This document shows, one piece after another, positions 4,666 to 33,043 of a stretch of 34,600 nucleotides of DNA; position 1 is the first letter of the stretch; every line of letters starts with the position of its first letter. The notes under the pieces are model-generated. The model saw only the letters and a list, made by a program, of their open reading frames with translations. It was not told where the DNA came from and made no database searches. The stretch is from a virus. The stretch covers positions 1-34,600 of the IMG/VR virus record IMGVR_UViG_3300025917_000011, one strand, 5' to 3'. A program made the translations under genes and the position numbers.

Positions 4666-5033
4666 CTGACACAACCCTGCCGCCCGAGGTCGCGGAAGCG
4701 ATGCCGGAGGGTGCACAAACCGAGCTGCAAGTGTTGGCTAATTACATTGAGCCAGGGGACGCAAGCGTGGCCTTCCACCTGATAGCAAGACGATTGCACA
4801 TCCTCGCCGAGGAAAACGCGCGGCTGCTGGCGGCGAACCGTGACTGCGTGGATCACTTCGAGCAGATGCGGGCCGAACGCGACGCGCTCAAGGCGAGGAT
4901 CGCGGAGGCGAGGCGAGTGATGCTCGGCACGTATCCGGCGCACGGTAGCGGCTACGTGCAGATTGTCTCCGACCCCGCGAATGGGATTGGCGACGAAACC
5001 TTCGCCCTGCTCAAGCTGGAGGACGGCGAATGA
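4662..5033 (+). CDS. Hypothetical coiled-coil protein, 123 aa.
   Basis: ORF track; GAGGAGG Shine-Dalgarno directly upstream. Confidence 0.55.
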   Translation: MTDTTLPPEVAEAMPEGAQTELQVLANYIEPGDASVAFHLIARRLHILAEENARLLAANRDCVDHFEQMRAERDALKARIAEARRVMLGTYPAHGSGYVQIVSDPANGIGDETFALLKLEDGE

Positions 5034-5299
5034 ACTGGCAACCGATTGAGACTTGTCCGAGGGACGGCTCGTGCTTCCTAGTCTGGGTGCACGCGGAAAC
5101 TCACGGCGAAAACGATGAAGGTTTCCCCACGGTTGCCGACAATTCCTATGCGGACATTGGATGGTGGCGCGCTGGGACCGATCCTGTTCTATATGGCTAC
5201 GTTGACTTCGGCGGCCAGAACACGCACCACGTAGACGAGCCGGAGTATTGGATGCCCCTACCACCACCGCCAAGCTGGAGGACGGCGAGCGGTGAGTGA
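5030..5299 (+). CDS. DUF551-family phage protein.
   Basis: The N-terminal W.PIETCPRDG and C-terminal EYWMPLPPPP match the DUF551 signature (W..i...P ... HWMPLPePP). GGAGGA Shine-Dalgarno upstream. Confidence 0.65.
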   Translation: MNWQPIETCPRDGSCFLVWVHAETHGENDEGFPTVADNSYADIGWWRAGTDPVLYGYVDFGGQNTHHVDEPEYWMPLPPPPSWRTASGE

Positions 5300-6116
5300 A
5301 GATAGCCAGCATTGGTACTTGCCGGATGGCACGCCGTTCTACGAATGCAAGGCGCGCGATGGACACATGCGTCCTGTCACGCTTCGTGACGCCCGCAAGG
5401 TTCACGCCGTGCCCAGCGTCACCACCGTATTATCCGTGGTGGCCAAGCCGAATCTGGAAGCTTGGAAAGTCCAGCAAGGGATTCTCGCCGCGCTGACGTT
5501 GCCACGCCGCCCAGACGAATCCGAGGTGGACTGGCTGCAAAGGGTGCGCGACGACGCCAAGGCGCAGGCCAAGGCTGCCGCCGAGGAAGGCTCACGCATC
5601 CACGCGGCCCTCGAAGCCCACGCACGCGGCCAAGCGTATCCCCAGCGCTATCAGCCCCACGTACAGGTTGTCTGGGCCGAGATTGCGAAACTGTACCCGG
5701 ACATCACGGACTGGGTGCCGGAAACCCGCTTTGCCCATCCGGATGGTTTCGGCGGCATGTGCGACCTGCACTCGCCCTCGACGGGCGTGTGTCTGGACTA
5801 CAAAGGCAAGGATGGGGACTTTTCGGACGGGAAGCGCATGGCCTACGACCAGCATTGGCAACTGGCGGGCTACCAGCGCGGCATGGAACTCCCCAAGGCG
5901 ACGTGCGCCAGCGTATTTGTATCCCGCACGCATCCTGGCAAAGTAGCCAGCCACGTCTGGAGCACCGAGGACATGCAGCAAGGCCAGCGGGTGTTTGATG
6001 CCGCGCTGGCGCTCTGGCAGGCGATCAAGAATTACCCGGCGGCGCAGTCCGCCCAGATGATAGCCTCTTCGAGGTACGGCGTGTCGACGGACCATCCGGA
6101 CGGCAACCGCAGGTAG
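5292..6116 (+). CDS. PD-(D/E)XK exonuclease, RecB/Cas4-like.
   Basis: Ordered motifs GSRIHAALE, GGMCDLH, CLDYKGK and QLAGY fit the RecB-family nuclease motif set. GTG start with GGAGGA 9 nt upstream. Confidence 0.8.
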   Translation: MSEDSQHWYLPDGTPFYECKARDGHMRPVTLRDARKVHAVPSVTTVLSVVAKPNLEAWKVQQGILAALTLPRRPDESEVDWLQRVRDDAKAQAKAAAEEGSRIHAALEAHARGQAYPQRYQPHVQVVWAEIAKLYPDITDWVPETRFAHPDGFGGMCDLHSPSTGVCLDYKGKDGDFSDGKRMAYDQHWQLAGYQRGMELPKATCASVFVSRTHPGKVASHVWSTEDMQQGQRVFDAALALWQAIKNYPAAQSAQMIASSRYGVSTDHPDGNRR

Positions 6117-6199
6117 TACATTTCGCCGATACGGATGACCCGCACGCTGGCACGGGTCCAGCGGCCCCACGATGCAATGCGGTTACGCTTGGCGTGCAT
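6032..6199 (-). CDS. Possible 55-aa ORF, the last gene of the leftward operon.
   Basis: ORF 6032..6223 trimmed to the ATG at 6199. It overlaps the 3' end of the convergent exonuclease gene by 85 nt, so it is doubtful. Confidence 0.2.
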   Translation of the reverse strand: MHAKRNRIASWGRWTRASVRVIRIGEMYYLRLPSGWSVDTPYLEEAIIWADCAAG

Positions 6200-6383
6200 G
6201 ACGCGCCCCTCCATTGGTCGCATTCATTTCCACCAGCGCGAGCCTCAAGCACTCCGCGCATGCGTTGAACAGCTCGGCGTTCAATCCGCACGGCGTATCG
6301 GCCAGAACCTGACGGAGGAAGGTGTACACCTTGCGCCCGGCAGCCATGCGTGCGGCGCGTTTCTTGCCAAGAGGCCGATTCAT
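6183..6383 (-). CDS. Hypothetical basic protein, 66 aa.
   Basis: ORF 6183..6515 trimmed to the ATG at 6383, which overlaps the upstream stop (ATGA). Confidence 0.45.
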   Translation of the reverse strand: MNRPLGKKRAARMAAGRKVYTFLRQVLADTPCGLNAELFNACAECLRLALVEMNATNGGARHARQA

Positions 6384-6676
6384 GACTGCGCTTCCCGAGC
6401 ATCGCGGAATCCCGCCCGATACGCGTGCATCAGGCTGAACAGATCGCGGGCACTTCCGGCCCTCAAGAGGGACCGCTCGCCGCCGCGTTCGTTCGTAATC
6501 TCGCTCAATCCCCACGCCAAGCCGTTGAGCGTCGATCCGCGGTTGATGATCAACTTGCCCACCAGCGCCACCAATCGATCCCCGTGGCGCGTGTAGGTGT
6601 AATCGTTCGGACGCCCCATCTCCCGCGCCATGATATCGCGCAGCGCGTTCAGGTCTTTTACCGTGATCCTATTCAT
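6380..6676 (-). CDS. Hypothetical protein, 98 aa (MNRITVKDLNALRDIM...).
   Basis: ORF 6380..6799 trimmed to the ATG at 6676, which overlaps the upstream stop (ATGA). Confidence 0.55.
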   Translation of the reverse strand: MNRITVKDLNALRDIMAREMGRPNDYTYTRHGDRLVALVGKLIINRGSTLNGLAWGLSEITNERGGERSLLRAGSARDLFSLMHAYRAGFRDAREAQS

Positions 6677-6825
6677 GACCGCGCCCTCCGCTTCATGGCT
6701 GCAAGTTGCGCCTTCGTCGGCGGCTTCACCTTCAGCGGAGCGAGCTTGACCCGCGCCTCTTCCCGTACCGCCTTGCATTCCGCGATCCACTCCGCCCAAG
6801 ACCGTTCATCCACCTTCGTATCCAT
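6673..6825 (-). CDS. Hypothetical protein, 50 aa (MDTKVDERSWAEWIAECKAVREEARVKLAPLKVKPPTKAQLAAMKRRARS).
   Basis: Hand translation; below the ORF-track cutoff. GAGGG lies 8 nt upstream. It is the first gene downstream of the sigma-54-like promoter. Confidence 0.4.
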   Translation of the reverse strand: MDTKVDERSWAEWIAECKAVREEARVKLAPLKVKPPTKAQLAAMKRRARS

Positions 6826-6870
6826 GGCTCAACCCTCAATCAAGCAACCCAAGCGGCTGCACCATAGGTA

Positions 6871-6888
6871 ATGCAAGTCGCGTGCCAA
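6871..6888 (-). promoter_or_regulatory. Sigma-54 (RpoN) type -24/-12 promoter reading leftward.
   Basis: The minus strand reads TGGCACGCGACTTGCAT, an exact match to TGGCACG-N4-TTGCW. The ATG at 6825 lies 46 nt after the -12 element. Confidence 0.6.
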
Positions 6889-6913
6889 CAGCTTTCAGCC
6901 CTATTCACATCAA

Positions 6914-6936
6914 AAAGTGACGCGCAACGTCACTTT
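6914..6936. promoter_or_regulatory. Palindromic site AAAGTGACG-N5-CGTCACTTT; candidate operator or enhancer site.
   Basis: Perfect 9-bp arms, read directly. Centred about 64 nt upstream of the predicted sigma-54 transcription start. Confidence 0.6.
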
Positions 6937-6948
6937 CCATGCCCTAAA

Positions 6949-6975
6949 ACGTCACCAAGTGACGCAATACGTCAT
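6949..6975. promoter_or_regulatory. Second site cluster: ACGTCAC-N3-GTGACG-N5-CGTCAT.
   Basis: Uses the same GTGACG/CGTCAC half-sites. The GTGACG-N5-CGTCAT dyad is centred 42 bp (about 4 helical turns) from the first dyad. Confidence 0.55.
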
Positions 6976-7103
6976 CTTCTTCCGTTCAGTCACCCAGCCC
7001 AACAACAACCCAACAACGGCCTTTCGTGTGCATGTGTTATGTGAGTGAGGATGGGTGGACGGGGAAAGTACACCCACACCCACCTATCCTTGGTTCTCAA
7101 ACC

Positions 7104-7124
7104 AATACTGATCAGTACAGTATT
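7104..7124. repeat. Palindrome TACTGATCAGTA (7106-7117) nested in AATACTG...CAGTATT.
   Basis: Perfect 12-bp palindrome centred on GATC, read directly. Confidence 0.85.
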
Positions 7125-7169
7125 CATCCAATCATTCATGGATCACCAAAGGTACAGCCATTGCCCGGC

Positions 7170-7189
7170 AACGGTCGATCAGGACCGTT
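7170..7189. repeat. Inverted repeat AACGGTC-GATCAG-GACCGTT.
   Basis: Perfect 7-bp arms around a spacer that contains GATC. Confidence 0.85.
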
Positions 7190-7410
7190 CAAACTGCTCA
7201 CTGATGGGAGAGCCCAAGAATGCTTTGTGAAGGGCGAACAGCATGGAATTGTTTTGCACCCACACTACGCCCACCCCAAAAAAATCCTGTGGAAAGGGTT
7301 GTGTAAAGGGTAGTTGACAAGTAAGTGGATTAACCTTTGATTTCTTATAGGAATCAATTATTTAGTAATACATTCATAAACAGTGGTTTCGACAGAGTGA
7401 TTTCCGACGA

Positions 7411-7643
7411 CTGCTTTTGATCTTGGCTACGGGCTTGCGATGGTTTTGATCTGGATTTTCTCAAAGGCTTTTGCTTTTGATCGCGGTAGGTCGAAGCGGT
7501 GTTTGAACGCTTGCTGGGGTCTGGCTCTTGATCTGCATGCTCGCGGTAGGTTGACCTAAGGCGAGCGTGGAGATCAAGAGCCAGGAAGGGGCGAAAGACG
7601 ATCCCGGGCTACGTAGGCGGGGCGATCAAAGGCAAAAGCCTTT
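7411..7643. other. Putative origin of replication: GATC-bearing iterons plus a nested dyad centred near 7553.
   Basis: Direct repeats of (T)GCTTTTGATC-like sequence have their GATC at 7419, 7448, 7479 and 7530, with the first three spaced about 30 bp apart. The 14-bp perfect arms 7521-7534 and 7571-7584, and the 22-nt arms 7463-7484 and 7622-7643 (21/22 complementary), share one centre. There are 7 GATC sites in 209 bp. An AT-rich tract (7321-7380, about 23% GC) and two 7/9 DnaA-box-like sites (7288-7296, 7324-7332) lie just upstream. Confidence 0.5.
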
Positions 7644-7739
7644 GGAGGAAAGCCGGGGAGCAGGAGCGAAAGCAGAAGCTTGCCTGATTCACGTACTCAA
7701 GCGTATGGGCAGGGGTTGGTATAAGATAAAGAAGGGATG

Positions 7740-7837
7740 CTCTGGAACCCGCATCAGGACGCGGGTACAGTAAATTGATTGACGCACGGAAAAATATCGT
7801 ATAGTTTATATGCCTTCATTGGATGCGGGTTCCAGAG
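7740..7837. repeat. Perfect 16-bp inverted repeat (CTCTGGAACCCGCATC at 7740-7755, GATGCGGGTTCCAGAG at 7822-7837) enclosing the rep promoter.
   Basis: Read directly. A T6 run follows at 7844-7849, just before the rep Shine-Dalgarno. Confidence 0.85.
7779..7807 (+). promoter_or_regulatory. Candidate sigma-70 promoter for the RepL-like gene: TTGACG-N17-TAGTTT.
   Basis: The hexamers are read from the sequence. TATAGT at 7800 is an alternative -10 with a 15-nt spacer. Confidence 0.4.
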
Positions 7838-7859
7838 GCTCGCTTTTTTGGAGGAAAAA

Positions 7860-8261
7860 ATGCAACCTGAACGGAGTACAGTAATTGGCGATGACTTCGT
7901 GATGCTGATCCAGAACAAGAAGTGGGGCCAAAAATTGATGGATTTTAAGGAGTTGGGGTTCCGGACCCGGGTGCTTTTGGTCTTGTTGGACAAGGTGACG
8001 TACGGGAACGAGGTGTGGCAGACGGGAACGAGCATTGCCAAGACCCTTGGAACCTCTCCCATGGTGGTGAATCGTCATTTGGCGTATTACGCGAAGGTCG
8101 GTCTGATTCGTCGCGGAGGGGATGGGGAACGCTTCAAGATTTATCTCAACGAGGATTTTTTCTGGAAGGGCGGACGTGTCGGACGCATCATCGCCAAGCG
8201 CCAGTCCACAACCCACCGGTTCCAGCGATCCCGTGAGGTGCCATCGTGCGAACGTACTTGA
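7860..8261 (+). CDS. Winged-helix replication initiator candidate, RepL-like.
   Basis: GGAGGA Shine-Dalgarno then ATG at 7860. The pattern RVLLVLLDKVTYGNEVWQTGTSIAKTLGTSPMVVNRHLAYYAKVGLIRR ... KIYLNEDFFWKG resembles RepL-family wHTH proteins. It lies directly downstream of the iteron region. GC is about 48%. Confidence 0.5.
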   Translation: MQPERSTVIGDDFVMLIQNKKWGQKLMDFKELGFRTRVLLVLLDKVTYGNEVWQTGTSIAKTLGTSPMVVNRHLAYYAKVGLIRRGGDGERFKIYLNEDFFWKGGRVGRIIAKRQSTTHRFQRSREVPSCERT

Positions 8262-8485
8262 GGGTTCCCTACGCCGAGAAGGACGCCGCCAAGCGTGCGG
8301 GCGCGCGCTGGGACGGCGAAAAGCGCTTGTGGTACGTGCAGGACATGGACAATCTGCGCCCCGTGATGCCGTGGATTCCCGAAGCCCTGAAACGACCATG
8401 GAACGCGCGTTCGCTTCCCCGCAAACCCGAGCCTTCCCTTTCTCCGAAAAGGGCGTACACTCTGCCCAGCCGACACGGAGCCTGA
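8246..8485 (+). CDS. DUF5710 domain protein, 79 aa.
   Basis: YLRVPYAEKDAAKRAGARWDGEKRLWYV matches the DUF5710 signature seen at the N-termini of plasmid and phage primase/helicase-type proteins. GTG start. Confidence 0.7.
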   Translation: MRTYLRVPYAEKDAAKRAGARWDGEKRLWYVQDMDNLRPVMPWIPEALKRPWNARSLPRKPEPSLSPKRAYTLPSRHGA

Positions 8486-8487
8486 TC

Positions 8488-8706
8488 ATGCCCTTCCCGA
8501 TGCGTCCCGCGAATCCCCCGCAATTCCTTCCCACGGGAGGCAATCCCAAGGTCCGTACGTTCCGCCCCAATGGCCTGGATGGTTTTACCGGCCCCGACTA
8601 TCGCGAACGCCGCATGGCCGGTCCCGTGATTCCTGCGCTGGCTCCGGCGCGCAGCGTCAAGCGAATGGGTGTCGCGGTCGGAAATCGTGGAGAGTGGAAA
8701 CGGTGA
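8488..8706 (+). CDS. Possible hypothetical protein, 72 aa.
   Basis: Distal part of ORF 8122..8706, from the ATG 3 nt after the upstream stop. Third codon positions are moderately GC-rich and no motif was recognised. Confidence 0.3.
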   Translation: MPFPMRPANPPQFLPTGGNPKVRTFRPNGLDGFTGPDYRERRMAGPVIPALAPARSVKRMGVAVGNRGEWKR

Positions 8707-9053
8707 GGACGAACCTTGGGGTGAGGATGGCGATCCGCCGCTCCCCCATCGCCGCTTCCGATTGGGCACGCGAACTGGGCGTGGGTCATTCCGAAATCGT
8801 CAAGCTGCGCGATGGCTGGTCCTGCATCCAGCACGGACCTTTGATGCAACGCCTTGTCCGCATGCTGCAAGCCTTGGATGAAGGGCGCGTGCATTGGGAG
8901 AAGCGTCCGGCCCGTCGTCCCAAGGGACGCCCCTATCACGTGCTGGTCGGCAACGAGAAGTTCACCCCTTCAACCATGGGCCTGTACGCCGATTTCACCA
9001 CCGGCCGCATGGTCAAACGCGCATGGAGCGAATCCGATGCGCTTTCCTGTTGA
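8694..9053 (+). CDS. HTH DNA-binding protein; candidate small terminase subunit.
   Basis: HTH-like segment ASDWARELGVGHSEIVKLRDG. It sits immediately upstream of, and overlaps, terL. The start is uncertain (8694, 8703 or 8727). Confidence 0.4.
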   Translation: METVRTNLGVRMAIRRSPIAASDWARELGVGHSEIVKLRDGWSCIQHGPLMQRLVRMLQALDEGRVHWEKRPARRPKGRPYHVLVGNEKFTPSTMGLYADFTTGRMVKRAWSESDALSC

Positions 9054-10833
9054 ACAATTCCGAACGTTCTGCGGTGCACTGCAACTCAATTCCAAGGAAC
9101 AGGGCCGGGTACGTTTCACGTGGAACGGTGCCCAGCGCCGTTTCATCGATCTTGTTGCCAAGGGACTGGAAAAAGGCATCCACAAGTTTGTCGTGTGCAA
9201 GGCCCGCCAGCTTGGCCTCACGACGGTTTGCCTCGCGTTGGACCTTTTCTGGCTGTATCGGAATGCCGGGATGCAAGGCGCGATGGCGGTTCCGAATGAA
9301 ACGGTCCGCGACCTGTCCCGCAACATCATCGACAATTACATCGACGGCCTTCCGCCTTCAATGAAGTGGCCGAGGCTGCTTAACAACCGCAACGAAATGC
9401 GTTTTGCCAACGAATCACGCCTTGCCCATCTGATCGCGGGTGGACGCAACTCGGGCGCGTTGGCACGCGGTCAGGGCCTCTCTTTCGTCCACGCCACCGA
9501 AATGTCGTCGTGGGCCGATCCCGAAGGCGTGATTTCGCTTGAGGCGTCGATGGCTGAAACCCACAAGCGCCGCCTGTATGTGTTCGAGAGCACCTCGCGC
9601 GGCTTCAACGTGTTCCACGACATGTGGAAGGACGCCGAGCTTTCGATGTCCACCGAGGCCGTTTTCATTGGGTGGTGGGCCAAGGAGGATTACCGGATCG
9701 AGGAAACCTCGCGGCTCTGGAACACCTATGGCCGCAGCCACTTGTCCGCCGAGGAAAAGATGTGGGGGAAGGAAGTCAAGAAGCTCTACGGCGTGGAACT
9801 GGACCGCCAGCAATGGGCGTGGTGGCGCTGGAAGTGGGCGGAAAGCGGCGGCAGTCGGCTGCTGCTCGCCGAATATCCCTTCACCGCCGACCAATCCTTC
9901 GTCATGACGGGAAGCGAATTTTTCCCCTTGCAAACGCTCCAGGACATGCTGAAACGGACGCATGGGGATGAAGGCGAGTCGTGGAACTACAAGCTCTCGA
10001 CCCGTTTCGAGAACACGGAAGTTTACCGCGACGAGGACGGTCCCTTGACCGTGTGGGAAGAACCGCAACCGGATTGTGCCTACGTGATCGCCGCCGACCC
10101 TGCCTACGGCGAATCGGAATGGGCGGACTGCTTTTGCATCGAAGTCCTGAAATGCACCGCGACGGGCGCCGAACAGGTGGCGGAATTCAACACGCCCGAT
10201 TGCACCATGTACGGCTTTGCGTGGATCATGGCGCATTTGGCAGGTGCCTATTCGACGCCCAGGCATGCACCGACCGTGATCCTGGAATTGGGCGGACCGG
10301 GGCGCGGCGTTTTGCAGGAACTTCAACGGATGCCAAGCCAGTACGCCGCGACCGTGGCGGGCCTTTCGGATCGTGCACGGGCGGAACTCGCCGACATTTT
10401 CGGTTCGATCCAGCACTACCTGTACCGGCGCCCCGACAGCCTTTCCGGTTCGTCCCTGTTGCAATGGGAAACCACGTGGAAGACCAAGCAGATCATGATG
10501 AACACGCTGCGTGACCTGATTGAACGCGGCATGATCAAGATTCGCAGCGAAGCGTGGATCAACGAAGCGCGCTACGTGACCCAGAACGGCACATCGATCA
10601 AGGCCGAAGGCCGCACGCAGAAGGATGATCGGGTGATTGCCATGGCCTTGGGCTGCATGGCGTGGCAGGAACAATTGATGCCCCAGTTGTTGATGGGCCG
10701 GGGCATGGACGAATATTCCGGAATGGAGCACAATGCGGTCGCGCGTTCGATTGGGAACTGGCTGTCCAACCTCAACGCACAGACCGAAGAATCGAATTGG
10801 CAGAAAGCCGGGAGCATGTCATGGCAAGACTGA
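9037..10833 (+). CDS. terL: Terminase large subunit.
   Basis: ATPase motifs are KARQLGLTT (Walker A-like) and LSFVHATEMSSW. RNaseH-like nuclease motifs are YVIAADPAYGESEWADCF and KDDRVIAMALGCMAW. ORF 8854..10833 is trimmed to the ATG at 9037. Confidence 0.9.
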   Translation: MRFPVEQFRTFCGALQLNSKEQGRVRFTWNGAQRRFIDLVAKGLEKGIHKFVVCKARQLGLTTVCLALDLFWLYRNAGMQGAMAVPNETVRDLSRNIIDNYIDGLPPSMKWPRLLNNRNEMRFANESRLAHLIAGGRNSGALARGQGLSFVHATEMSSWADPEGVISLEASMAETHKRRLYVFESTSRGFNVFHDMWKDAELSMSTEAVFIGWWAKEDYRIEETSRLWNTYGRSHLSAEEKMWGKEVKKLYGVELDRQQWAWWRWKWAESGGSRLLLAEYPFTADQSFVMTGSEFFPLQTLQDMLKRTHGDEGESWNYKLSTRFENTEVYRDEDGPLTVWEEPQPDCAYVIAADPAYGESEWADCFCIEVLKCTATGAEQVAEFNTPDCTMYGFAWIMAHLAGAYSTPRHAPTVILELGGPGRGVLQELQRMPSQYAATVAGLSDRARAELADIFGSIQHYLYRRPDSLSGSSLLQWETTWKTKQIMMNTLRDLIERGMIKIRSEAWINEARYVTQNGTSIKAEGRTQKDDRVIAMALGCMAWQEQLMPQLLMGRGMDEYSGMEHNAVARSIGNWLSNLNAQTEESNWQKAGSMSWQD

Positions 10834-13420: not shown

Positions 13421-13596
13421 TGCCTCTCGCACGCGGGACTTCGCGCAAGACGCTTTCCCGGAACATTCGTGAGTTGCATACCGGGGAAACCTACGCGCGC
13501 ACCGCAAGGAAATCGGGCAAGCGCGCGGCGAACCGGCAGGCCATTGCCATCGCCTACGCACAGCGCCGGAAATCAAAACGCGGCGCACGCAAATAA
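13420..13596 (+). CDS. Small basic protein, 58 aa (RELHTGETY ... NRQAIAIAYAQRRK).
   Basis: Hand translation; its ATG overlaps the portal TGA. The QAIAIA-type motif recalls a widespread family of small basic proteins. Confidence 0.5.
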   Translation: MPLARGTSRKTLSRNIRELHTGETYARTARKSGKRAANRQAIAIAYAQRRKSKRGARK

Positions 13597-13599
13597 AAC

Positions 13600-13630
13600 T
13601 TGACACCTGTTCGTTCATTGGTGTTATAAA
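13600..13630 (+). promoter_or_regulatory. Near-consensus sigma-70 promoter: TTGACA, then an extended -10 TGtTATAAA.
   Basis: TTGACA is at 13600-13605 and TATAAA at 13625-13630, preceded by TGt. The spacer is 19 nt (18 nt if TTATAA is taken as the -10). It lies in the gap after 13596. Confidence 0.55.
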
Positions 13631-13776
13631 TCCCTCCGTGCAACGCAATCGACCGCCGCGCACATCCGCGCGGAACCGTGCGGTCTTTACCGGAGCGATC
13701 CGGCAACACGCGGCCTCAATCGGGGCAAGGCGGTTGGACCCAGAGATTCCGTCTTACCATCCAATGGAGAAAAGAC

Positions 13777-13860
13777 ATGGCACGCAAGCACAAGAGCACC
13801 AAGCGTTCCGCGAAGCATTCGACGAAGCGCAGTCACAAGCGCTCGTCCAAGCGCGCGTAA
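13777..13860 (+). CDS. Micro-ORF, 27 aa, hyper-basic (MARKHKSTKRSAKHSTKRSHKRSSKRA).
   Basis: GGAGA lies 7 nt upstream. 23 of 27 third codon positions are G or C. Confidence 0.35.
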   Translation: MARKHKSTKRSAKHSTKRSHKRSSKRA

Positions 13861-13869
13861 GGCACGATC

Positions 13870-14013
13870 ATGCGTACGCCCGTCCGCGAACCGCGTGAAC
13901 CGATGGCCCGGAAAAGCAAGGCATCGCCCGCGCGTCCGGCACAACCCATCCATCGCCAACCGACAGGCCGCAACAACACGCGGCCTACGTCGCGCGGCGG
14001 CTACCGTCCGTAG
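13870..14013 (+). CDS. Micro-ORF, 47 aa, basic and Pro/Arg-rich.
   Basis: Hand translation (MRTPVREPREPMARKSKASPARPAQPIHRQPTGRNNTRPTSRGGYRP). Weak AAGG Shine-Dalgarno. Confidence 0.3.
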   Translation: MRTPVREPREPMARKSKASPARPAQPIHRQPTGRNNTRPTSRGGYRP

Positions 14014-14022
14014 GAGTCCATC

Positions 14023-14100
14023 ATGGCTACCGCCAAACAGAAAACCGCCGCGCGCAAGAACCTGCGCAAGGCGCGCAAGTCCCGCAAGGTGCGTCGCTGA
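14023..14100 (+). CDS. Micro-ORF, 25 aa, hyper-basic (MATAKQKTAARKNLRKARKSRKVRR).
   Basis: AGGAG lies 7 nt upstream. 21 of 25 third codon positions are G or C. Confidence 0.35.
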   Translation: MATAKQKTAARKNLRKARKSRKVRR

Positions 14101-14103
14101 ACC

Positions 14104-14475
14104 ATGGCGACCCCCGATCTCGGTACGTTGTCCGCTCCGCTCCCCGGTCAAGGTCAGGCCGGGGCAGCGGGCGGCGATCCGTCTGGCGGCAATCCTGCGG
14201 ACGCGGCTGCACCCGCTCCGGCCACGGGACAAGAAAGTCCAGCAGGCAAGATCACACTGGCCAAGACCAAGGTTTCCATTGCGTTGTCCATGTTGAACGC
14301 AACCCTCTCGGACTTCGAGCCGGGATCGCGCGAACACAAGGCGGTCATGGATGTGACGCGGAAACTGGCAAAAGAATTCGCAGGCGCGGGCGCCGCCAAG
14401 CAGTTGGCGCCGTCCGAAGCCGGTATGTTGCAATCGGAGGCGGCCAGCACCGGCGCCGCACAGTTGAATTCATGA
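14104..14475 (+). CDS. Hypothetical virion-module protein, 123 aa, with an Ala/Gly/Pro-rich N-terminus.
   Basis: ORF track; same strand within the late operon. Confidence 0.5.
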   Translation: MATPDLGTLSAPLPGQGQAGAAGGDPSGGNPADAAAPAPATGQESPAGKITLAKTKVSIALSMLNATLSDFEPGSREHKAVMDVTRKLAKEFAGAGAAKQLAPSEAGMLQSEAASTGAAQLNS

Positions 14476-14485
14476 GGATCAGAAC

Positions 14486-14680
14486 ATGGCTGAACGCCCG
14501 AACAACCTCACCCCTGAAACCAACGGTTTGCGTCCGCCGGACACGAACGAGAAGCGCTATGGCAACCTGATCAACGGGCCGCGCTTCCCTGAATTCGGCG
14601 GCGCTGAAGCCGTCAACAAGATCGTGAAGCGTGCGCCGTATGGCCGCATCGCCCACGTCGGTCGCCGGGGCAAGCCGTAA
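14486..14680 (+). CDS. Hypothetical protein, 64 aa.
   Basis: ORF track; GAGGA lies 7 nt upstream. Confidence 0.5.
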   Translation: MAERPNNLTPETNGLRPPDTNEKRYGNLINGPRFPEFGGAEAVNKIVKRAPYGRIAHVGRRGKP

Positions 14681-25754: not shown

Positions 25755-28700
25755 GTGGCCGATACCGCGCCGGTGCCTTTGGAGGATTTGCCCGATGTGG
25801 GGCCGAAGGCGTCAGACAGCGCGCTTCCGAAATTGGGCAGCAAGCCTTCGTCCGGTTTCATGCGTTCCGCATTGGACGTGCTTGGCGCAACCCTTACGGG
25901 TGAAGCCACTGCCGTCGCAAAAGGCGCTGGCAGCGTGGCGCAATCGATTGCGGGCGTGATTGGTGGACCCAAGCTCGAAGCTGCTACCCAAGCCGAAGCC
26001 GACAAGTTCACGCCGCACTACCAGCCCATGACGGAAGCGGGCGTCGTGACACAACGGTTTGAACAGCGTTACATCGAAGGCGTGAAGTCGCAGGAAAAGC
26101 AGATCGCCAGCGCCATCGCCAACGGCCAGAGTTTCGAGGACGAGCCGGGCCAATCCATGTGGGAACTGGTGCAGGTGCCCATCCAGGGCGCGCTGCATGG
26201 CGCGACTTCAATCGTGGGCTGGGCGGCGGGCGTGGGATATACGGCGGCGGGGCAACCCGCCAAGGGCGCGCAGATTGAAACATCCATCGGGAATTTCGTG
26301 CCTGCTCCGCAACCGGTGACTGCGCTGGGACGCGAGTGGAATACGTGGGGCATGTTGTTTGCGCCCTTGACTGAAACAACCCACGCCGGTGAGGCGGAAT
26401 ACACGGCGGACATCAAAGACCCTTCGGCATGGGCGCACTACGCGTTCGAGGCCGGATCGGCTGGTTTGATGCTGGTAGGCGGCAAAGGACTAGGCGAAGC
26501 GGGCGGCGCTATCGGACGCGCCACGGGATTGCTGGACAAGGATGTTGCGGTTCCCCTTTCCACCAAGCGCGAAGTGCCCGATGAAGTACGGGTGCCCGAG
26601 CGTCCCGGTGCCAAGGCGGAAGAAACATCGGCAGCATCGGCGGAGCCCAAGGACACGCTGTTCGACACGGGCGATGCCGAGATCGAACGGGAAGCGGCGC
26701 GGCAAGCACAGCGCGATCAATACCATGATCTCAACCGCAGCCGCGAAGAAGAAAATACATTCACGCCGTACAAGGACGAGAACGGCCAACCGCTGACGGT
26801 CTACCACGGCACCAACGGCGACTTCACCGATTTCAAGACCGAAGCTGATAGCGTGTTCAACTATGGCCGGGGCGGCAGGGGCGGCAGCATTGGCATCTAC
26901 ACGTCGCCCAATCCTGACTATGCCGGGGCCTTCGCCGACACGAGCAAGCCGGGGGCCAACCTGCGCCCCGTGCATGTGCAGTTGCGCAATCCACTACATG
27001 CCCGGTACGAAACCTTCAACCTTGCCGATCAGGAAAAGGTGCTGGAACAGGCGAAGGCGGCGGGTCACGATGGCGTGATCTTCCACAACGGCAACGTGGT
27101 TGATGAAATTGCGGTATTCGATCCGGCCAACATCCGCAGCATCTTCGACAAGAATGCGTTCGAGTCAGTATCGGACCAGCAGGCCGATTCGATCCTTGAC
27201 TATCAGCGCACCCTGCACGACGCGGCCCAAGCGCATGCGGACGATGCTGATTTCAGTACGGCCCAGCAGAGCGCCGCACGCACGGATGAACTGTTACGCG
27301 GCGGCGGTCCCGGCCATGCGGGCATCCCAAAGGGACAGTACACCGGCGACTGGCACGACTACCTCGCGGCAATGGCTGAACTCGCCGGTACAGATATTGG
27401 CGCGTTGCGATTGAGTTTCAACGAACTTGAGGGCTTGGACAAGGAGCCGGGCGAGTTCGATGATCTCGAAACCTTGTCGCATGAAATCCCGGAACGGGAT
27501 GAGAATGGGTTGGAAGGCCTGACGCCACGCGCCAAGGAGCATCTTGCATCGCTCAAGGCCAAGCGAAGCCTGAAAGCCGCCTTCGGGAACAAGGTTCGTG
27601 ATGTGCGTAGCGGGCTTTACAAGGTGTACTCGGGCGCGACCAGCAAGGCGAGTGAAGCTGACATTGCCCACGTCGCGCAAACCATGGCGCTGGGCGCGAT
27701 GGAACGCGAACGGATGGAAGCCGTCAATGCGGGCATCCGCAAGGTATTCGCGCGCATGAATGATCAGGACTTGGCGGCGTGGTGGCGGCATTTCCAGAAA
27801 GGCGCGCCGATGCCGGATCACTTGGGCGACAAGGCGGATTGGGCGTCCATCGACAAGTTCTACGAAGATATCTTCGCGCGTGGCATGGAAGAGCGCAGAC
27901 TGGCGGCCGATCCCGTCAACGAAATGAAGCGCGCCAAATACTTCCCCCAGTACGCGCGGCCCAAGGATTGGACCCAACGTTTGAACCTTGGGCTTTCCGG
28001 CAAGGAACGCGCCTTCGATACGATGGACAATCTCTTGGATGCCGGGGTTGAACCCTTGTCCATGAACCCTGCCGTGCATTTCCACTACTGGCTGCGCGGG
28101 CAGGAACGCGCCATCGGTCGGGCGGAAATGCGCTGGCAGAAAATCCATGGCGGGTTGCGCGTGGTGCCCAAGTCCTACGTCCCCAAGCCGGATGAACTGA
28201 CGGTCGAATCGCCGGACGGGTTGGTACGCTATGCGGGGAAAGCCGATCTTGTGTCCTTCATGAATAAGAACGTGCTGGCCAAGCCGTTCATGGGATTCGA
28301 GGCCAACTTGATGGCCACGCTGCGCGCAGTAGGGGTGGTCAAGAATTCCGCACAAGCAGTCCTGTTCGGCTTCAACCCCTTCCACGGCATCCACATCGGC
28401 GTGTTCGTGCGGCCCCTGCACGGGCTGGCTGAATCGCTTTCCTTGATCGACAACAAACTGACACCGAGCGGCGTCGTGGACACGGCCAAGGCATTCGGCA
28501 AGATGTTCACGACGGCGGATCGGCCCAAGGTGAACGGCGCCAAGTTGAGCGCGCGCAGCATCCGCAAAATCGCTTCGGGTAAACAGGGCGGCATCCGGTT
28601 CAACCGAAAGACCAAGGCCGTGGAATTTCCGGAGGGCGGCGATCCGTTCCTTGACGTGATCGATGTCGTACGCCACGGCGCCGATCCGTCCATCCTCAAA

Positions 28701-30515
28701 ACGCCTGCACAAGAAATTCTGCGGCGCGCGGCGGTGGGCGGCTATGAAATCCACAACCCCGAATGGACGAACGTGGCGCACGCCAAGTTCCTCGAAGGCG
28801 TGCAGGATGCCACGGCCTCGGGCTACATGCGTGCGGCAGGCTGGACGATTCCGGCTTTCCTGCGTTCGCTTGGCTATCCGATGATGGATCAGTTTGTGCC
28901 GCTGGTGAAGTTGCGGGCCTTCGCCGCCGACACGGAACGCTGGCACCAGGCAAACCCCACCGTTGAACCCGGATCGCCTGCCGAACGCGTGGCCTTTGCG
29001 CGTGCGCGGCGCGAGATCGATCAGCGGTTCGGGGAAATGAACACCAAGCTTTTGGGCATGCACCCGCTGCTCGCGGCGGCGTTTCAGGGATCGATGCTTT
29101 CGTTCGGCTGGAACTTCGGCCTTGCCAGCCAATTCGGTGGTGGCGGCAAGGACGCGGTACACAAGCTGTTCGATGCGGCGACCGGCGAGCAACGTGAAAA
29201 GATGCGCAGCCGCGCGTTGTACGCCTCCCTGTACGCGGGTTACGCCTGTCTGGCCGGGGCTATCGTCACCAAGGCGTTCAGCGGCAAGGACCCGGAAACC
29301 TTGAAAGATTGCATCTACCCCATCGTCGGCACTGACAAACAGGGCCAAGCGATCCGGGTCAAGTTGCCGTCACTCATGAACGATTTTGGCGCCGAGTTCT
29401 ACAACACCCGCGACAAGGGCGTGTTCGAGGGCACCCGCGAGACGCTGGCCAACAAAGCAGCCCCCATCTTCAACAGCTTCGACCAGTTCATCACCAATGA
29501 GAACTGGATGAACCAGAAGATCAGCGACCCTTACGCCCCGGCGATCCAGCAGATCGCCCAGCGGTTCAAGGCCGTCATGGAAAGCAACCTGCCGATTTCC
29601 ATCGCCCAGGCCGAACGCCAAGTCCACAACGTCACGCCTGCCGAACAGAAGGCATTATCCATCGCCGCTTTCGCGGGCATCAACAAGGCTCCGGCCTACG
29701 TTTCCACCCCGGCCCCCATCGAGCAGATTTACCGGGTGTCGGCGATCCTTGGCGGTCAGGAAACCTATTCCAGCAACCAGCTTTACCAAGCCGAGAACCG
29801 CGCCAACCTGCGCGACTTGTTCGAAGAAGGGCAGGGCAGCGGCGACTTCGGCGCCTACCGCATTGCCGAACGCCAATTCCAGACCAAGTGGAACACGCTG
29901 CACCCCGATACGCCGCTGACCAAGACAGGGCTGCGGGCGCTACGCAAGCGGCTGCGCTCGCCGCGTGCCGCCATGACCTTGCAGAACGAGCAGAATGAGG
30001 GGCAGGAGCACGTCTGGCAGTCTATGCAAGACTACGGCGACGGCATGGCCATGCTGGCCCAATACCTTCCCTACTTCCACACCACGGTCAAGCAGCAGAT
30101 GTGGAAGCGCATGACGCCCCAGCAGCAGGCCGAGCTGAAAGCCCAATGGGGTGCGCTCAACGCTCCATTAATACCTGCGGCATCTACAGTCCATGTGCAT
30201 GCGCCTGTATTCATGGCCATTCCAAGACCAACTGGACTTATTCAAGCGGGGAACATCGATTTGTCGGCACGCCCCACTGTACATAATGCAGATGGATCAA
30301 TCAGCACGGTTCGATCAATAACGATAACCGATGACAAAGGGCGCGCTACCTTGATACCTACGGTCGTAGGCAATAAGGTCGTATCCAATCAGGATGCAAT
30401 TGAACACTTCCGCAAGACGGGCGAATTGTTGGGTGTGTTCGACAACGAAAAAGATGCCGATGCGTACGCGGAAGCCCTACATGAACAACAGGCAAAAGAG
30501 TATTTGCCCCATTAA
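25755..30515 (+). CDS. Giant internal/ejection-type virion protein, 1586 aa, with an ART-PolyVal-like ADP-ribosyltransferase domain (aa 335-469).
   Basis: Its size and its position last in the virion block fit a T7 gp16-like role. The domain motif is [15 protein letters not shown] ... [17 protein letters not shown] ... VHVQLRNPL ... [36 protein letters not shown] start. Confidence 0.85.
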
Positions 30516-31073: not shown

Positions 31074-31508
31074 TCACGCGGCCCACTGCCCCGTTTCGAT
31101 CATGTTGGCGAGGCGCGTGTAGCGGACTGGAAGCTCCCGGTAAACCTTCGTGGCGCGAAGATCATCGGCAGCCGCCTGCCAGCGCTGGGCGGCGATGTAG
31201 CCGAAGAACACACTGAACGTCGCAATCGACCCGGTGCCGAGATTGAAGAGCATGTCGGCGATGGCGGCTTGGCGGACATCATTCAGCAACGCCCACCAGG
31301 ACTCGGTAGACGCTACCGCCAGCACGGCATCCAGATCGTGCTGGAATTGCAGCATGGCCGCTTGATTCAGGAGCGCCCACACGTCGGTTGCCGGTGGCGA
31401 GGCATCGAGGTTGTGCCCCACGCCCCACGTACGGTGCCCGGTGGTGTCTACATACGGCCAGATGCGTAGCCCTTCATCGTGCAGGATCAGCGATTGCATG
31501 TCAGTCAT
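31074..31508 (-). CDS. Endolysin, T4-lysozyme-like muramidase (GH24).
   Basis: LHDEGLRIWPYVDTTGHRTWGVGHN carries the Glu-8aa-Asp-5aa-Thr catalytic pattern of GH24 lysozymes. Confidence 0.85.
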   Translation of the reverse strand: MTDMQSLILHDEGLRIWPYVDTTGHRTWGVGHNLDASPPATDVWALLNQAAMLQFQHDLDAVLAVASTESWWALLNDVRQAAIADMLFNLGTGSIATFSVFFGYIAAQRWQAAADDLRATKVYRELPVRYTRLANMIETGQWAA

Positions 31509-31977
31509 GGGTGTGTTCCTCGTGGCGTTTCAGCATCAGCGCTTGGATGCCATGTTTGCGGGCCGCCTGTATCCATTCCAGCGCCTTGCCGTTGTTGACG
31601 TGGGCCGTGGTAACAAGGATCGTCCGGAATCCCATCACGGCAGCCAGCGACGCCTTCTCGCAATCGCGCGTGATGCCGGTTCCGGAAGTGTGGCCAGAAT
31701 TGCCCTTGGCGTACACGCCGCCCTGCACTTCGACCAACAGGTCAGGCGAAACGAAATAATCGAAAGCAAACTTGCGCCCCGGAATCGGCTTGTATTGCGG
31801 GATGAACGCCATGCCGACACTTCGTAACTGCGCGTCCAGCAGCAATTCTCCCTTGGACGTTGCTCGTGGTTTGACTGTCTTTTTGGCAGGTTTTGGCTTG
31901 ATGGCCTCCAACGCCTGCTTGCGCCCAGCATTCCACGCCGAAAGCTGATCTTCGGTCCACCGAATCGCCTTGCTCAT
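31501..31977 (-). CDS. Restriction-endonuclease-fold protein, Vsr/DUF559-like.
   Basis: The pattern ELLLDAQLRSVG ... RKFAFDYFV ... LLVEVQGG ... GHTS..GITRDCEK..LAAVMGFRTILVTTAHV fits the DUF559/Vsr-like layout. ORF trimmed to the ATG at 31977 (AAGGTGA Shine-Dalgarno). Confidence 0.6.
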   Translation of the reverse strand: MSKAIRWTEDQLSAWNAGRKQALEAIKPKPAKKTVKPRATSKGELLLDAQLRSVGMAFIPQYKPIPGRKFAFDYFVSPDLLVEVQGGVYAKGNSGHTSGTGITRDCEKASLAAVMGFRTILVTTAHVNNGKALEWIQAARKHGIQALMLKRHEEHTHD

Positions 31978-32240
31978 GGTTTCACCTTGTTGTTCAAGTG
32001 CCGAAGATCGGCAATCTGTGCGTTGCAAACCGCTAGGGCGGCCAGCGCGTGCTGCCAAGCCCACAATAAATCGGCATTGGTCTTAATCCCCGTGGGAGGC
32101 GCGATACAGGGCACCAAATCGGAAGTCGGCATCGGCACGTACTGAACTTTCGTCACGGTCACAATCTGTGGCGGGGCAGCGACAGGGGCGCTGGCACAAC
32201 CTGCCAAGGCCAGCAATATCGCAATGATCAAGATTCTCAC
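31974..32240 (-). CDS. Outer-membrane spanin (o-spanin) lipoprotein.
   Basis: The signal peptide ends in the lipobox LAGC (VRILIIAILLALAGCASAP) and the mature part is Pro-rich. The GTG start overlaps the i-spanin stop (GTGA). Confidence 0.7.
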   Translation of the reverse strand: MRILIIAILLALAGCASAPVAAPPQIVTVTKVQYVPMPTSDLVPCIAPPTGIKTNADLLWAWQHALAALAVCNAQIADLRHLNNKVKP

Positions 32241-32644
32241 GGATTGCCTCCGGCAGCGGATTGGACGGAGGCGGGAACGGGCTGCGCCAACCACGTTGCG
32301 ACATCCGGTTTTGCCTTGGCCTCATCGGCAATCTTTGCCTGCAATGCCGTGATGCGATCCGCTTGAGTCTGGATCGTTGTCGCATGACTGGTGGCAGCTT
32401 GTTGGGCTTCCGTGATGGCAGCTTGCTGTTGCGCCAGTGTGGCCGCGTCGGCCTGTGCCTGTGCAAGCCGCGCCGTATCTTCGGCCTTGATGAGGGCCTT
32501 GGACTGCGCCGTTTGCAGGGCAAAAAGGGCCTTGTCGTCGGATAAGCCACGGACGCGCGAGCCGTAGAGATAACCGGCAATCAGGCACGCCAGCAATAGG
32601 CCAACGCCGATCAGAATGCGGTAGGGGAGTGGAATCAGGTTCAT
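32237..32644 (-). CDS. Inner-membrane spanin (i-spanin).
   Basis: N-terminal TM helix ILIGVGLLLACLIAGYLY followed by an Ala/Gln-rich coiled coil. Lies immediately upstream of the lipoprotein gene. Confidence 0.75.
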   Translation of the reverse strand: MNLIPLPYRILIGVGLLLACLIAGYLYGSRVRGLSDDKALFALQTAQSKALIKAEDTARLAQAQADAATLAQQQAAITEAQQAATSHATTIQTQADRITALQAKIADEAKAKPDVATWLAQPVPASVQSAAGGNP

Positions 32645-32940
32645 GGGCGCCACCAATCAGGCCAAAGCTTTTCGGGCGCCATACTCCCCGCGTACAGCCA
32701 AACGGGTTGTACGCAAAACAATCTGGCCACAGCATCACATGATGGGAATTGATCTTTCGTCGCAAGTTGCCCCTGAGTCTCAAATCGGTATACCTGATGT
32801 TCATCAAGCCCCGTTTTATCAGCAAACTGTTTGCGCGTAAGATTGTGGTGTTCGCGCAGTTGTTTCAGGCGGCTTCCGATCGTGTCACCGGCCGGAACGC
32901 CTGCAAAAGTCATTGCAACCGTATTTCTCATGCCCTTCAT
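32641..32940 (-). CDS. XRE-family HTH transcriptional regulator.
   Basis: IGSRLKQLREHHNLTRKQFADKTGLDEHQVYRFETG is a classic Cro/C1-type HTH. GGAGG lies 5 nt before the ATG at 32940. Its stop overlaps the i-spanin ATG. Confidence 0.7.
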   Translation of the reverse strand: MKGMRNTVAMTFAGVPAGDTIGSRLKQLREHHNLTRKQFADKTGLDEHQVYRFETQGQLATKDQFPSCDAVARLFCVQPVWLYAGSMAPEKLWPDWWRP

Positions 32941-33043
32941 GGACGCCTCCATCTTTTGTCAAGCGAAACACGCAGCAGGAAGGCTGCGACCGTCACGCGA
33001 ATGTTGATGATTTGTTGCAGGCGACAGCGGACTTCGAGCGGCG

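Follow-up and report, generated by a model that had tools for sequence, protein, structure and literature searches.

A predicted sigma-54-dependent promoter with an upstream array of three dyad-type sites was analyzed in a 34,600-nucleotide (nt) stretch of viral DNA (IMG/VR record IMGVR_UViG_3300025917_000011, positions 1 to 34,600). This stretch, hereafter called the window, is a podovirus-like phage of approximately 34.6 kb that probably infects a Gram-negative bacterium of soil or rhizosphere. The promoter lies on the minus strand and faces leftward into an operon of four small open reading frames (ORFs). From its sequence it is very probably a functional sigma-54 promoter in this phage. 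Taken as a whole, and with moderate confidence, the element is read as a phage promoter that would be activated by the host regulator PilR through an enhancer of the type found at type IV pilin genes. Host PilR is the probable activator, as judged from the genes that surround matching arrays in bacteria.

The minus strand at 6887..6872 reads TGGCACGCGACTTGCA and matches 12 of the 12 specified positions of TGGCACG-N4-TTGCW, with an exact spacing of 10 nt between the GG and the GC dinucleotide. The exact match occurs only once in the whole window. A first-pass annotation made from the sequence had placed an exact consensus promoter at 6888-6872; the consensus was as described, and the coordinate 6888 was one base too far. 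Its figure of 0.004 chance matches was too low for a window with a GC content of 60%, being optimistic by approximately 6-12 times: an exact match was obtained in 5 of 100 dinucleotide shuffles (0.05 per window), and a first-order Markov model gave 0.026 per window. For the 1-kb intergenic region alone, counted on the strand that carries the operon, the first-order Markov expectation was 0.0004. The orientation of the promoter fits the operon, and the first ATG at 6825, its GAGGG Shine-Dalgarno sequence and the distance of 46 nt between TTGCA and the ATG were all as annotated. The same bases also score as a sigma-70-like element, TTGGCA-N16-TATGGT (6888..6861), at 9 of 12 positions. The features of the promoter region and of the operon are listed in Table 1.

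Table 1. Coordinates of the predicted promoter, the upstream sites and the operon in the window
Feature	Position	Strand	Remarks
Distal enhancer dyad, ATGACG-tattg-CGTCAC	6959..6975	minus	Center at about -106; half-sites invariant and 5-nt spacer variable in 11 relatives
Middle site, GTGACG (6955..6950) with degenerate right half GGGCAT	6939..6955	minus	Center at about -86
Proximal enhancer dyad, GTGACG-ttgcg-CGTCAC	6917..6933	minus	Center at about -64; ends 29 nt upstream of the -24 box
Predicted sigma-54 promoter core, TGGCACG-cgac-TTGCA	6872..6887	minus	GG at -25/-24, GC at -13/-12
Predicted transcription start	6860..6863	minus	12 nt 3' of the C in the -12 GC, by established sigma-54 geometry
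Leader of about 35 nt, GAGGG Shine-Dalgarno at 6837..6833	6826..6859	minus	Near-invariant in close relatives, diverged in L022
ORF1, 50 aa	6673..6825	minus	Called as a gene in most related contigs covering the position; no family match
ORF2, 98 aa	6380..6676	minus	Core gene of the operon, conserved; family of 11 protein clusters in a set of 5.8 billion proteins
ORF3, 66 aa	6183..6383	minus	Replaced or missing in some relatives
ORF4, 55 aa	6032..6199	minus	Recognizable homologue (ASWGRW..VR..RI) in the diverged relative L022

Relatives were defined as contigs carrying the ORF2 family, all of them from soil or rhizosphere metagenomes, and they provided 11 distinct versions of the upstream region. 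Both promoter boxes, TTGGCA[C/T]G and CTTGCAT, were kept in 11 of the 11, in support of the -24/-12 reading of the annotation. The spacer between the boxes took five forms (CGAC, GACC, CCGC, AGGC and GGGC), and the three bases that follow the G of the first box, which are three of the four spacer positions, were the most variable columns nearby. By hand calculation from the alignment of the relatives, variable columns numbered 1 among the 12 specified positions versus 3 among the 4 spacer positions (Fisher P = 0.027). All nine columns upstream of the promoter element were variable. Such bipartite conservation is predicted by sigma-54 and not by sigma-70, because CTTGCAT would sit in the spacer of a sigma-70 promoter. 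In the most diverged relative (locus L022) the flanks and the leader differ and the promoter core is intact; its -10-like hexamer is without the key A.

The centers of the three upstream sites are spaced 20 and 22 bp apart, which puts those of the two outer dyads 42 bp from each other. The palindromes had been annotated as a pair, with the correct sequences, positions and 42-bp spacing; the count of two did not hold, since a third, degenerate site lies between them. Perfect copies of TGACG-N5-CGTCA were found in the window at the two outer dyads only, against 0.058 expected. Among the relatives the dyad half-sites were conserved while the 5-nt spacers varied. The left half of the proximal dyad was invariant, and its right half was CGTCAC, GGTCAC or GGGCAC. 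The middle site was a near-full dyad (GTGACG-ttttg-CGTCC) in L003, L013 and L019, and in L022 all three sites were of the form TGACG-N5-[G/T]GTCA, the right half being GGTCA or TGTCA. A second dyad copy at an immunity region, which would suggest a repressor of the phage's own, was not present in the window.

Bacterial genomes were scanned with a stricter array pattern, for which less than one chance match is expected in 596 Gb, and nine loci were obtained. Four of these were proteobacterial (L082, L085 from Pseudoxanthomonas sp. F11, L086 and L087), and all four lie at type IV major pilin genes, with the array 85-230 nt upstream of TTGGCAC-N5-YTGCT and the major pilin gene following. In L082 the array is found a few bases past the stop codon of an NtrC-family regulator, and pilA is followed by pilB (TIGR02538, 855 bits). 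The other five genome matches (Actinomycetota, Streptomyces, Gemmatimonadales) were tandem repeats or coding sequence, without a sigma-54 site or pilin. Two actinomycetotal loci (L080, 6880-7040, and L088, 6530-6600) contain 20-bp tandem repeats of GTGACGGGGTCGGTCACCGA-like units that match the dyad pattern; neither pilin nor sigma-54 sites accompany these repeats, which seem to belong to a separate, unrelated family.

When metagenomes were scanned with the stricter pattern, 41 loci were obtained; eight were pilin loci (L093, L098, L102, L108, L110, L111, L128 and L129), and the remainder includes phage-type modules. In L111, from a JGI metagenome, the C-terminus of a histidine kinase, a regulator with REC, Sigma54_activat, AAA lid and HTH_8 domains, the array with its sigma-54 site, the pilin, PilB and PilC follow one another, an order that L082 shares. 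In the loci that extend far enough, the gene for an enhancer-binding regulator lies directly upstream of the array or a few kb away. The location of the array between pilR and sigma-54 pilin promoters points to it as the pilA enhancer, with PilR as the most likely ligand. The contigs with an array-bearing pilSR-pilA region came from JGI metagenomes with contig prefixes numbered close to those of the phage relatives, which we take to be the same rhizosphere sample series. PilS-PilR (Nps-Npa) and sigma-54, together with IHF and an upstream activator sequence, are established in the control of pilin genes (PMC6058289, PMC6528607, PMC7170775, PMC8035640).

Viral contigs were scanned with the array only (TGACG-N5-SGTCAC-N3-GTGACG), no promoter being included in the pattern. 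Many unrelated phage contigs with a GC content of 0.42-0.65 carried 2-6 dyads in a 20-bp register, and in these contigs a TGGCAC-N5-xTGCA site lay 14-100 nt from the array and pointed away from it. The array-bearing contigs were phage-like by PHROGs, with terminases, portal, primase and DNA polymerase of different families. For a pooled count of arrays all fetched loci were used except the first 23 relatives of the window, and a sigma-54 site was accepted with at most one mismatch, within 250 nt of the array and pointing away. Such a site was near 29 of 67 non-redundant arrays, an excess of approximately 40-fold over a background of 0.0103 per array (about 0.7 in total). Seven of the 29 positive arrays were further copies of the window's lineage, and without them the count was 22 of 60. 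Between the array and the -24 box a perfect IHF consensus WATCAANNNNTTR, often in the form AATCAATGACTTA, was present in 9 of 25 modules (background 1e-4 per nt). An enhancer, an IHF site and then a -24/-12 core is the textbook layout of enhancer-dependent promoters. The recurrence of the module in unrelated uncultured phages makes it a class and not a single case. The annotation had also suggested that the palindromes are sites for enhancer-binding proteins or repressors, a view supported by the recurrence of the array near sigma-54 sites and at pilin promoters.

A looser scan with one dyad and a sigma-54 core returned mostly chance matches in coding regions; real modules are marked by arrays and not by single dyads. 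A BLAST search with a synthetic array consensus returned nothing. Signatures of enhancer-binding proteins were absent from the phage-like loci and were seen in cellular loci only. Activation through a host factor, as the annotation had expected, is supported by this absence, which extends to the window, together with the pilR-pilA context of the array.

Some individual modules deserve separate description. In L057 (3026-3545) at least five sigma-54-like sites were counted in 520 nt, including a divergent pair that flanks a single array, with an IHF consensus on one side. In L032 (approximately 13484-14490, minus strand) the module is followed by an ArdC-like anti-restriction gene (ArdcN plus zincin peptidase) and then by a beta-clamp-like gene. 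The ArdC-like gene behind this module indicates that at least some modules drive early-type genes, and suggests that the module can serve early, anti-defense genes. In L074, which is on the same contig as L124, six perfect TGACG-N5-CGTCA dyads stand in strict 20-bp register at 4755-4870, and a second cluster of about five dyads is located at 1204-1356, both without a sigma-54 site nearby. The L074 arrays could be a regulator sponge or another use of the same sites.

In the mechanism proposed for the window, host RNA polymerase with sigma-54 would bind 6887..6872 as a closed complex. The three tandem sites of GTGACG-N5-CGTCAC type would recruit dimers of a host NtrC-family enhancer-binding protein, most likely phosphorylated PilR, which is the response regulator of the pilin-sensing pair PilS-PilR, and the dimers would form an ATPase ring and open the promoter. 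Transcription would start near 6861 and proceed leftward through the four translationally coupled genes (6825..6032). The operon would be expressed only with PilR phosphorylated, that is, in cells actively making pilin. PilR is active especially in cells with a low membrane pilin pool (PMC6058289). PilR binding, RpoN dependence, the position of the start and a connection with infection through pili, if there is one, are inferred.

Several observations weigh against activation by PilR or against the promoter assignment itself. The gap between the proximal dyad and the -24 box is only 29 nt, versus 85-190 nt in the cellular pilA promoters, and no IHF consensus WATCAANNNNTTR was found in this 29-nt gap. 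The distances from array to promoter in 21 modules showed no significant helical phasing (P = 0.08-0.18). Close relatives are approximately 86% identical across the intergenic region, and much of the conservation signal comes from a few diverged sequences; the sigma-70-like T-A...G-T is kept in 10 of 11 relatives. A megablast search with window positions 5000-9000 found no cultured relative. The published PilR sites of Pseudomonas aeruginosa differ from the dyads, consisting of TGT-N11-ACA and GTCT elements, and the literature searched yielded no paper connecting PilR with GTGACG dyads, so that gene context is the one basis of the assignment. In a Lysobacter paper the P. aeruginosa motif was unmatched in the PilR target studied, and the cited Lysobacter and Xanthomonas papers define no PilR site for their species.

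These points bear first on the identity of the activator. A real sigma-54 promoter could be served through the dyads by another host enhancer-binding protein or by an unconventional phage factor, a possibility judged unlikely, which nonetheless gains from the gene-context basis of the PilR assignment and from the different sites published for P. aeruginosa. Modules in phages with a GC content of 0.37 to 0.65 would moreover need one DNA specificity across very different hosts, and the window encodes uncharacterized helix-turn-helix (HTH) proteins (7860-8261 and 32641-32952) that might take such a role. Opposed to this is the array itself, which precedes a sigma-54 site and a type IV pilin in all 4 genome and 8 metagenome pilin/proteobacterial loci. 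Sigma-54 cannot open DNA without an AAA+ enhancer-binding protein, and no signature of one was present in any phage locus; no gene was common downstream of the modules among the different phages listed.

An overlapping promoter of sigma-70 type, TTGGCA-N16-TATGGT, is an improbable alternative, by which the dyads would be repressor operators or class I activator sites and the sigma-54 match coincidental. It agrees with 9 of 12 consensus positions, with an invariant TTGGCA and with a -10-like hexamer TA..GT in 10 of 11 relatives, and the dyad centers, near -71, -93 and -113 for such a promoter, are compatible with activator sites. It leaves unexplained the invariance of CTTGCAT beside three hypervariable bases. 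L022 has G in place of the -11 A, and the central bases of the hexamer are variable. The other phages with arrays keep cores of TGGCAC-N5-TTGCA type (many with ATGCA, CTGCA or GTGCA) with different downstream sequence, arrays and sigma-54 sites co-occur at approximately 40 times the background with IHF sites between them, and the cellular arrays serve known sigma-54 pilin promoters.

The array could act mainly as a decoy, in which phage copies titrate PilR from pilA and shut down pilin synthesis (superinfection exclusion), with transcription secondary. The arrays of six and about five dyads in L074/L124, and promoter-less arrays in other loci, speak for it; for the window such a role is very improbable, since the array there is joined to an operon with a fully conserved promoter and comprises just three sites per genome. 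That the motif is a functionless chance match in a conserved intergenic region is hardly credible: 0.026-0.05 per window is not negligible over a large scan, and close relatives are 86% identical here, against which stand the bipartite conservation with a variable spacer, the core kept in L022, and the fact that the module recurs both at pilA and in unrelated phages.

A sigma-54 promoter with a PilR-bound enhancer would resemble type IV pilin (pilA) promoters in combining a -24/-12 core with an upstream array of short repeated NtrC-family sites, a general architecture that has been described (PMC6058289, PMC6528607, PMC7170775). The likeness extends to the same GTGACG-N5-CGTCAC-N3-GTGACG array between pilR and pilA and to the IHF site in many sister phage modules. 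The phage module differs from the pilin promoters in driving four small genes and not pilin, in its 29-nt gap and in being without an IHF consensus. Multi-site enhancers are familiar from the three NorR sites upstream of norV and the tandem NtrC sites at glnAp2. There, upstream of a sigma-54 promoter, an ATPase hexamer is nucleated by two to three dyads that share one face of the helix at a spacing of about two turns, as is proposed for the phage; the half-site sequence is different, the location is a chromosome and not a phage, and the phage sites do not have the regulator encoded beside them. In the psp response, too, sigma-54 and an enhancer-binding protein (PspF) are connected with phage infection, but the operon belongs to the host, responds to stress from phage secretins and is unrelated in sequence to the promoter carried by the phage.

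Phage morons are accessory cassettes that have their own promoter and are transcribed against their neighbors. The first-pass annotation had called the layout of the operon moron-like, and the predicted promoter of its own, the orientation opposite to the neighboring genes and the variable gene content among relatives all agree with this; the term is only loosely apt, no integrase, terminator or lysogeny being in evidence. The promoter type also sets the operon apart from morons and from other phage promoters that rely on a host factor, since the literature searched yielded no description of a phage promoter requiring sigma-54 together with an enhancer-binding protein of the host. Within the incomplete coverage of that literature, no sigma-54- or PilR-dependent phage promoter was met, and the topics encountered were on the host side (the psp response, phage RNA polymerase inhibitors, and the resistance of rpoN or pilR mutants to phages). 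Known phage strategies of transcription include host sigma-70, phage-encoded RNA polymerases and phage-encoded sigma factors.

Type IV pili are a very common phage receptor. The module would be a known promoter and enhancer system that is carried by phages and directed at the regulator of such a receptor. With PilR as the activator, the phage would respond to the signal that controls type IV pili, which would be a new logic for timing gene expression or making it conditional on receptor status. More tentatively, unrelated phages, probably infecting via type IV pili, may have wired accessory or early genes into the PilS-PilR circuit with a copied pilin enhancer and sigma-54 promoter. On this reading the activator of the phage's own receptor would be guaranteed to be active in piliated, susceptible cells and would report the state of the pilin pool, and promoter-less arrays may in addition titrate PilR and shut off pilin synthesis. 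GTGACG-N5-CGTCAC in a 20-bp register is put forward as a candidate PilR recognition sequence for soil Proteobacteria. The element might also serve as a compact, tightly host-gated promoter for phage engineering.

The four small ORFs reported in the annotation (50, 98, 66 and about 55 aa) were confirmed with their coordinates and overlaps. ORF1 and ORF2, and likewise ORF2 and ORF3, overlap by ATGA, and the overlap of ORF3 with ORF4 is 17 nt. No match was found for ORF1-4 in Pfam, PHROGs, NCBIfam or PADLOC. A profile search of the PDB with ORF2 gave only noise, the scan of the ORF2 family alignment against genomes gave no match, and an AlphaFold2 model from an 11-sequence alignment had a predicted local distance difference test score (pLDDT) of 44.5 and was unusable. 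No terminator was found for the operon, which extends into a convergent exonuclease-like gene (5292-6116) on the opposite strand, whose 3' end shares 85 nt (6032-6116) with ORF4; since the ORF4 homologue remains recognizable in L022, both overlapping genes appear real. Operon content is modular, with extra small genes directly behind the promoter in L001 (4960-5280), in L015-L019 and in L022 (2321-3292). A Phage_P22_Y8K6-family gene is part of the operon in L022, and repeats of the junction GAGGGTTGAGCCATG accompany the insertions in relatives.

The phage genes of the window include a terminase (8854-10833), an SU10-type portal and adaptor, and an endolysin. The longest contigs that bear the operon measure 34-37 kb, with none above 50 kb, which fits a free phage genome. 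A tblastn search with the terminase gave 42% identity at best, to uncultured spring phages, and no cultured relative; blastn of two other module-bearing loci gave nothing useful, and Rfam and tRNA scans of the window gave nothing. A lysis cassette on the minus strand (31974-32656 and 31074-31508) consists of a spanin pair and an endolysin. The i-spanin (32237-32656, minus strand) has a transmembrane segment and a coiled coil, and its gene overlaps that of a lipoprotein o-spanin (within 31974-32294), which carries a LAGC lipobox. A spanin pair of the Rz/Rz1 type together with an endolysin indicates a diderm (Gram-negative) host, which could therefore carry rpoN and type IV pili. A polyvalent protein of 1586 aa with an ADP-ribosyltransferase domain (ART-PolyVal) is encoded at 25755-30515 on the plus strand and is probably an ejected virion protein.

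No Sigma54_activat domain was found in the window ORFs that were scanned against Pfam, which covered some but not every ORF of at least 250 aa, and the six frames of the window contained none of the signatures (GAFTGA, Walker A, Walker B) by which enhancer-binding proteins are recognized. The absence of an AAA+ enhancer-binding protein from the genome, as annotated, is borne out by both approaches. An activator encoded by the phage was accordingly rejected as a candidate, the Pfam scans of tested ORFs and the six-frame motif scans being without an AAA+ enhancer-binding domain.

To the right of the array, a non-coding region of about 1 kb (6990-7860) has a GC content that falls to 0.46, especially at 7400-7700. 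It contains a conserved near-perfect palindrome of 64 nt (7521-7584) nested in a 23-nt inverted repeat (7462-7484/7622-7644), and TGCTTTTGATC repeats at 7412, 7441 and 7472, spaced 29-31 bp apart. Both strands of the palindrome region fold far better than shuffles (z of about -7); the hairpin is almost invariant in eight relatives, with no compensatory changes. The region could serve as an origin or a packaging site, or encode a structured RNA. Within 7779-7860, TTGACG-N15-TATAGT precedes a GC-rich hairpin that has a T-run (7825-7849); the winged-helix gene (7860-8261) follows shortly after, and this arrangement could be a promoter with an attenuator or terminator that opens the long rightward block through the structural genes.

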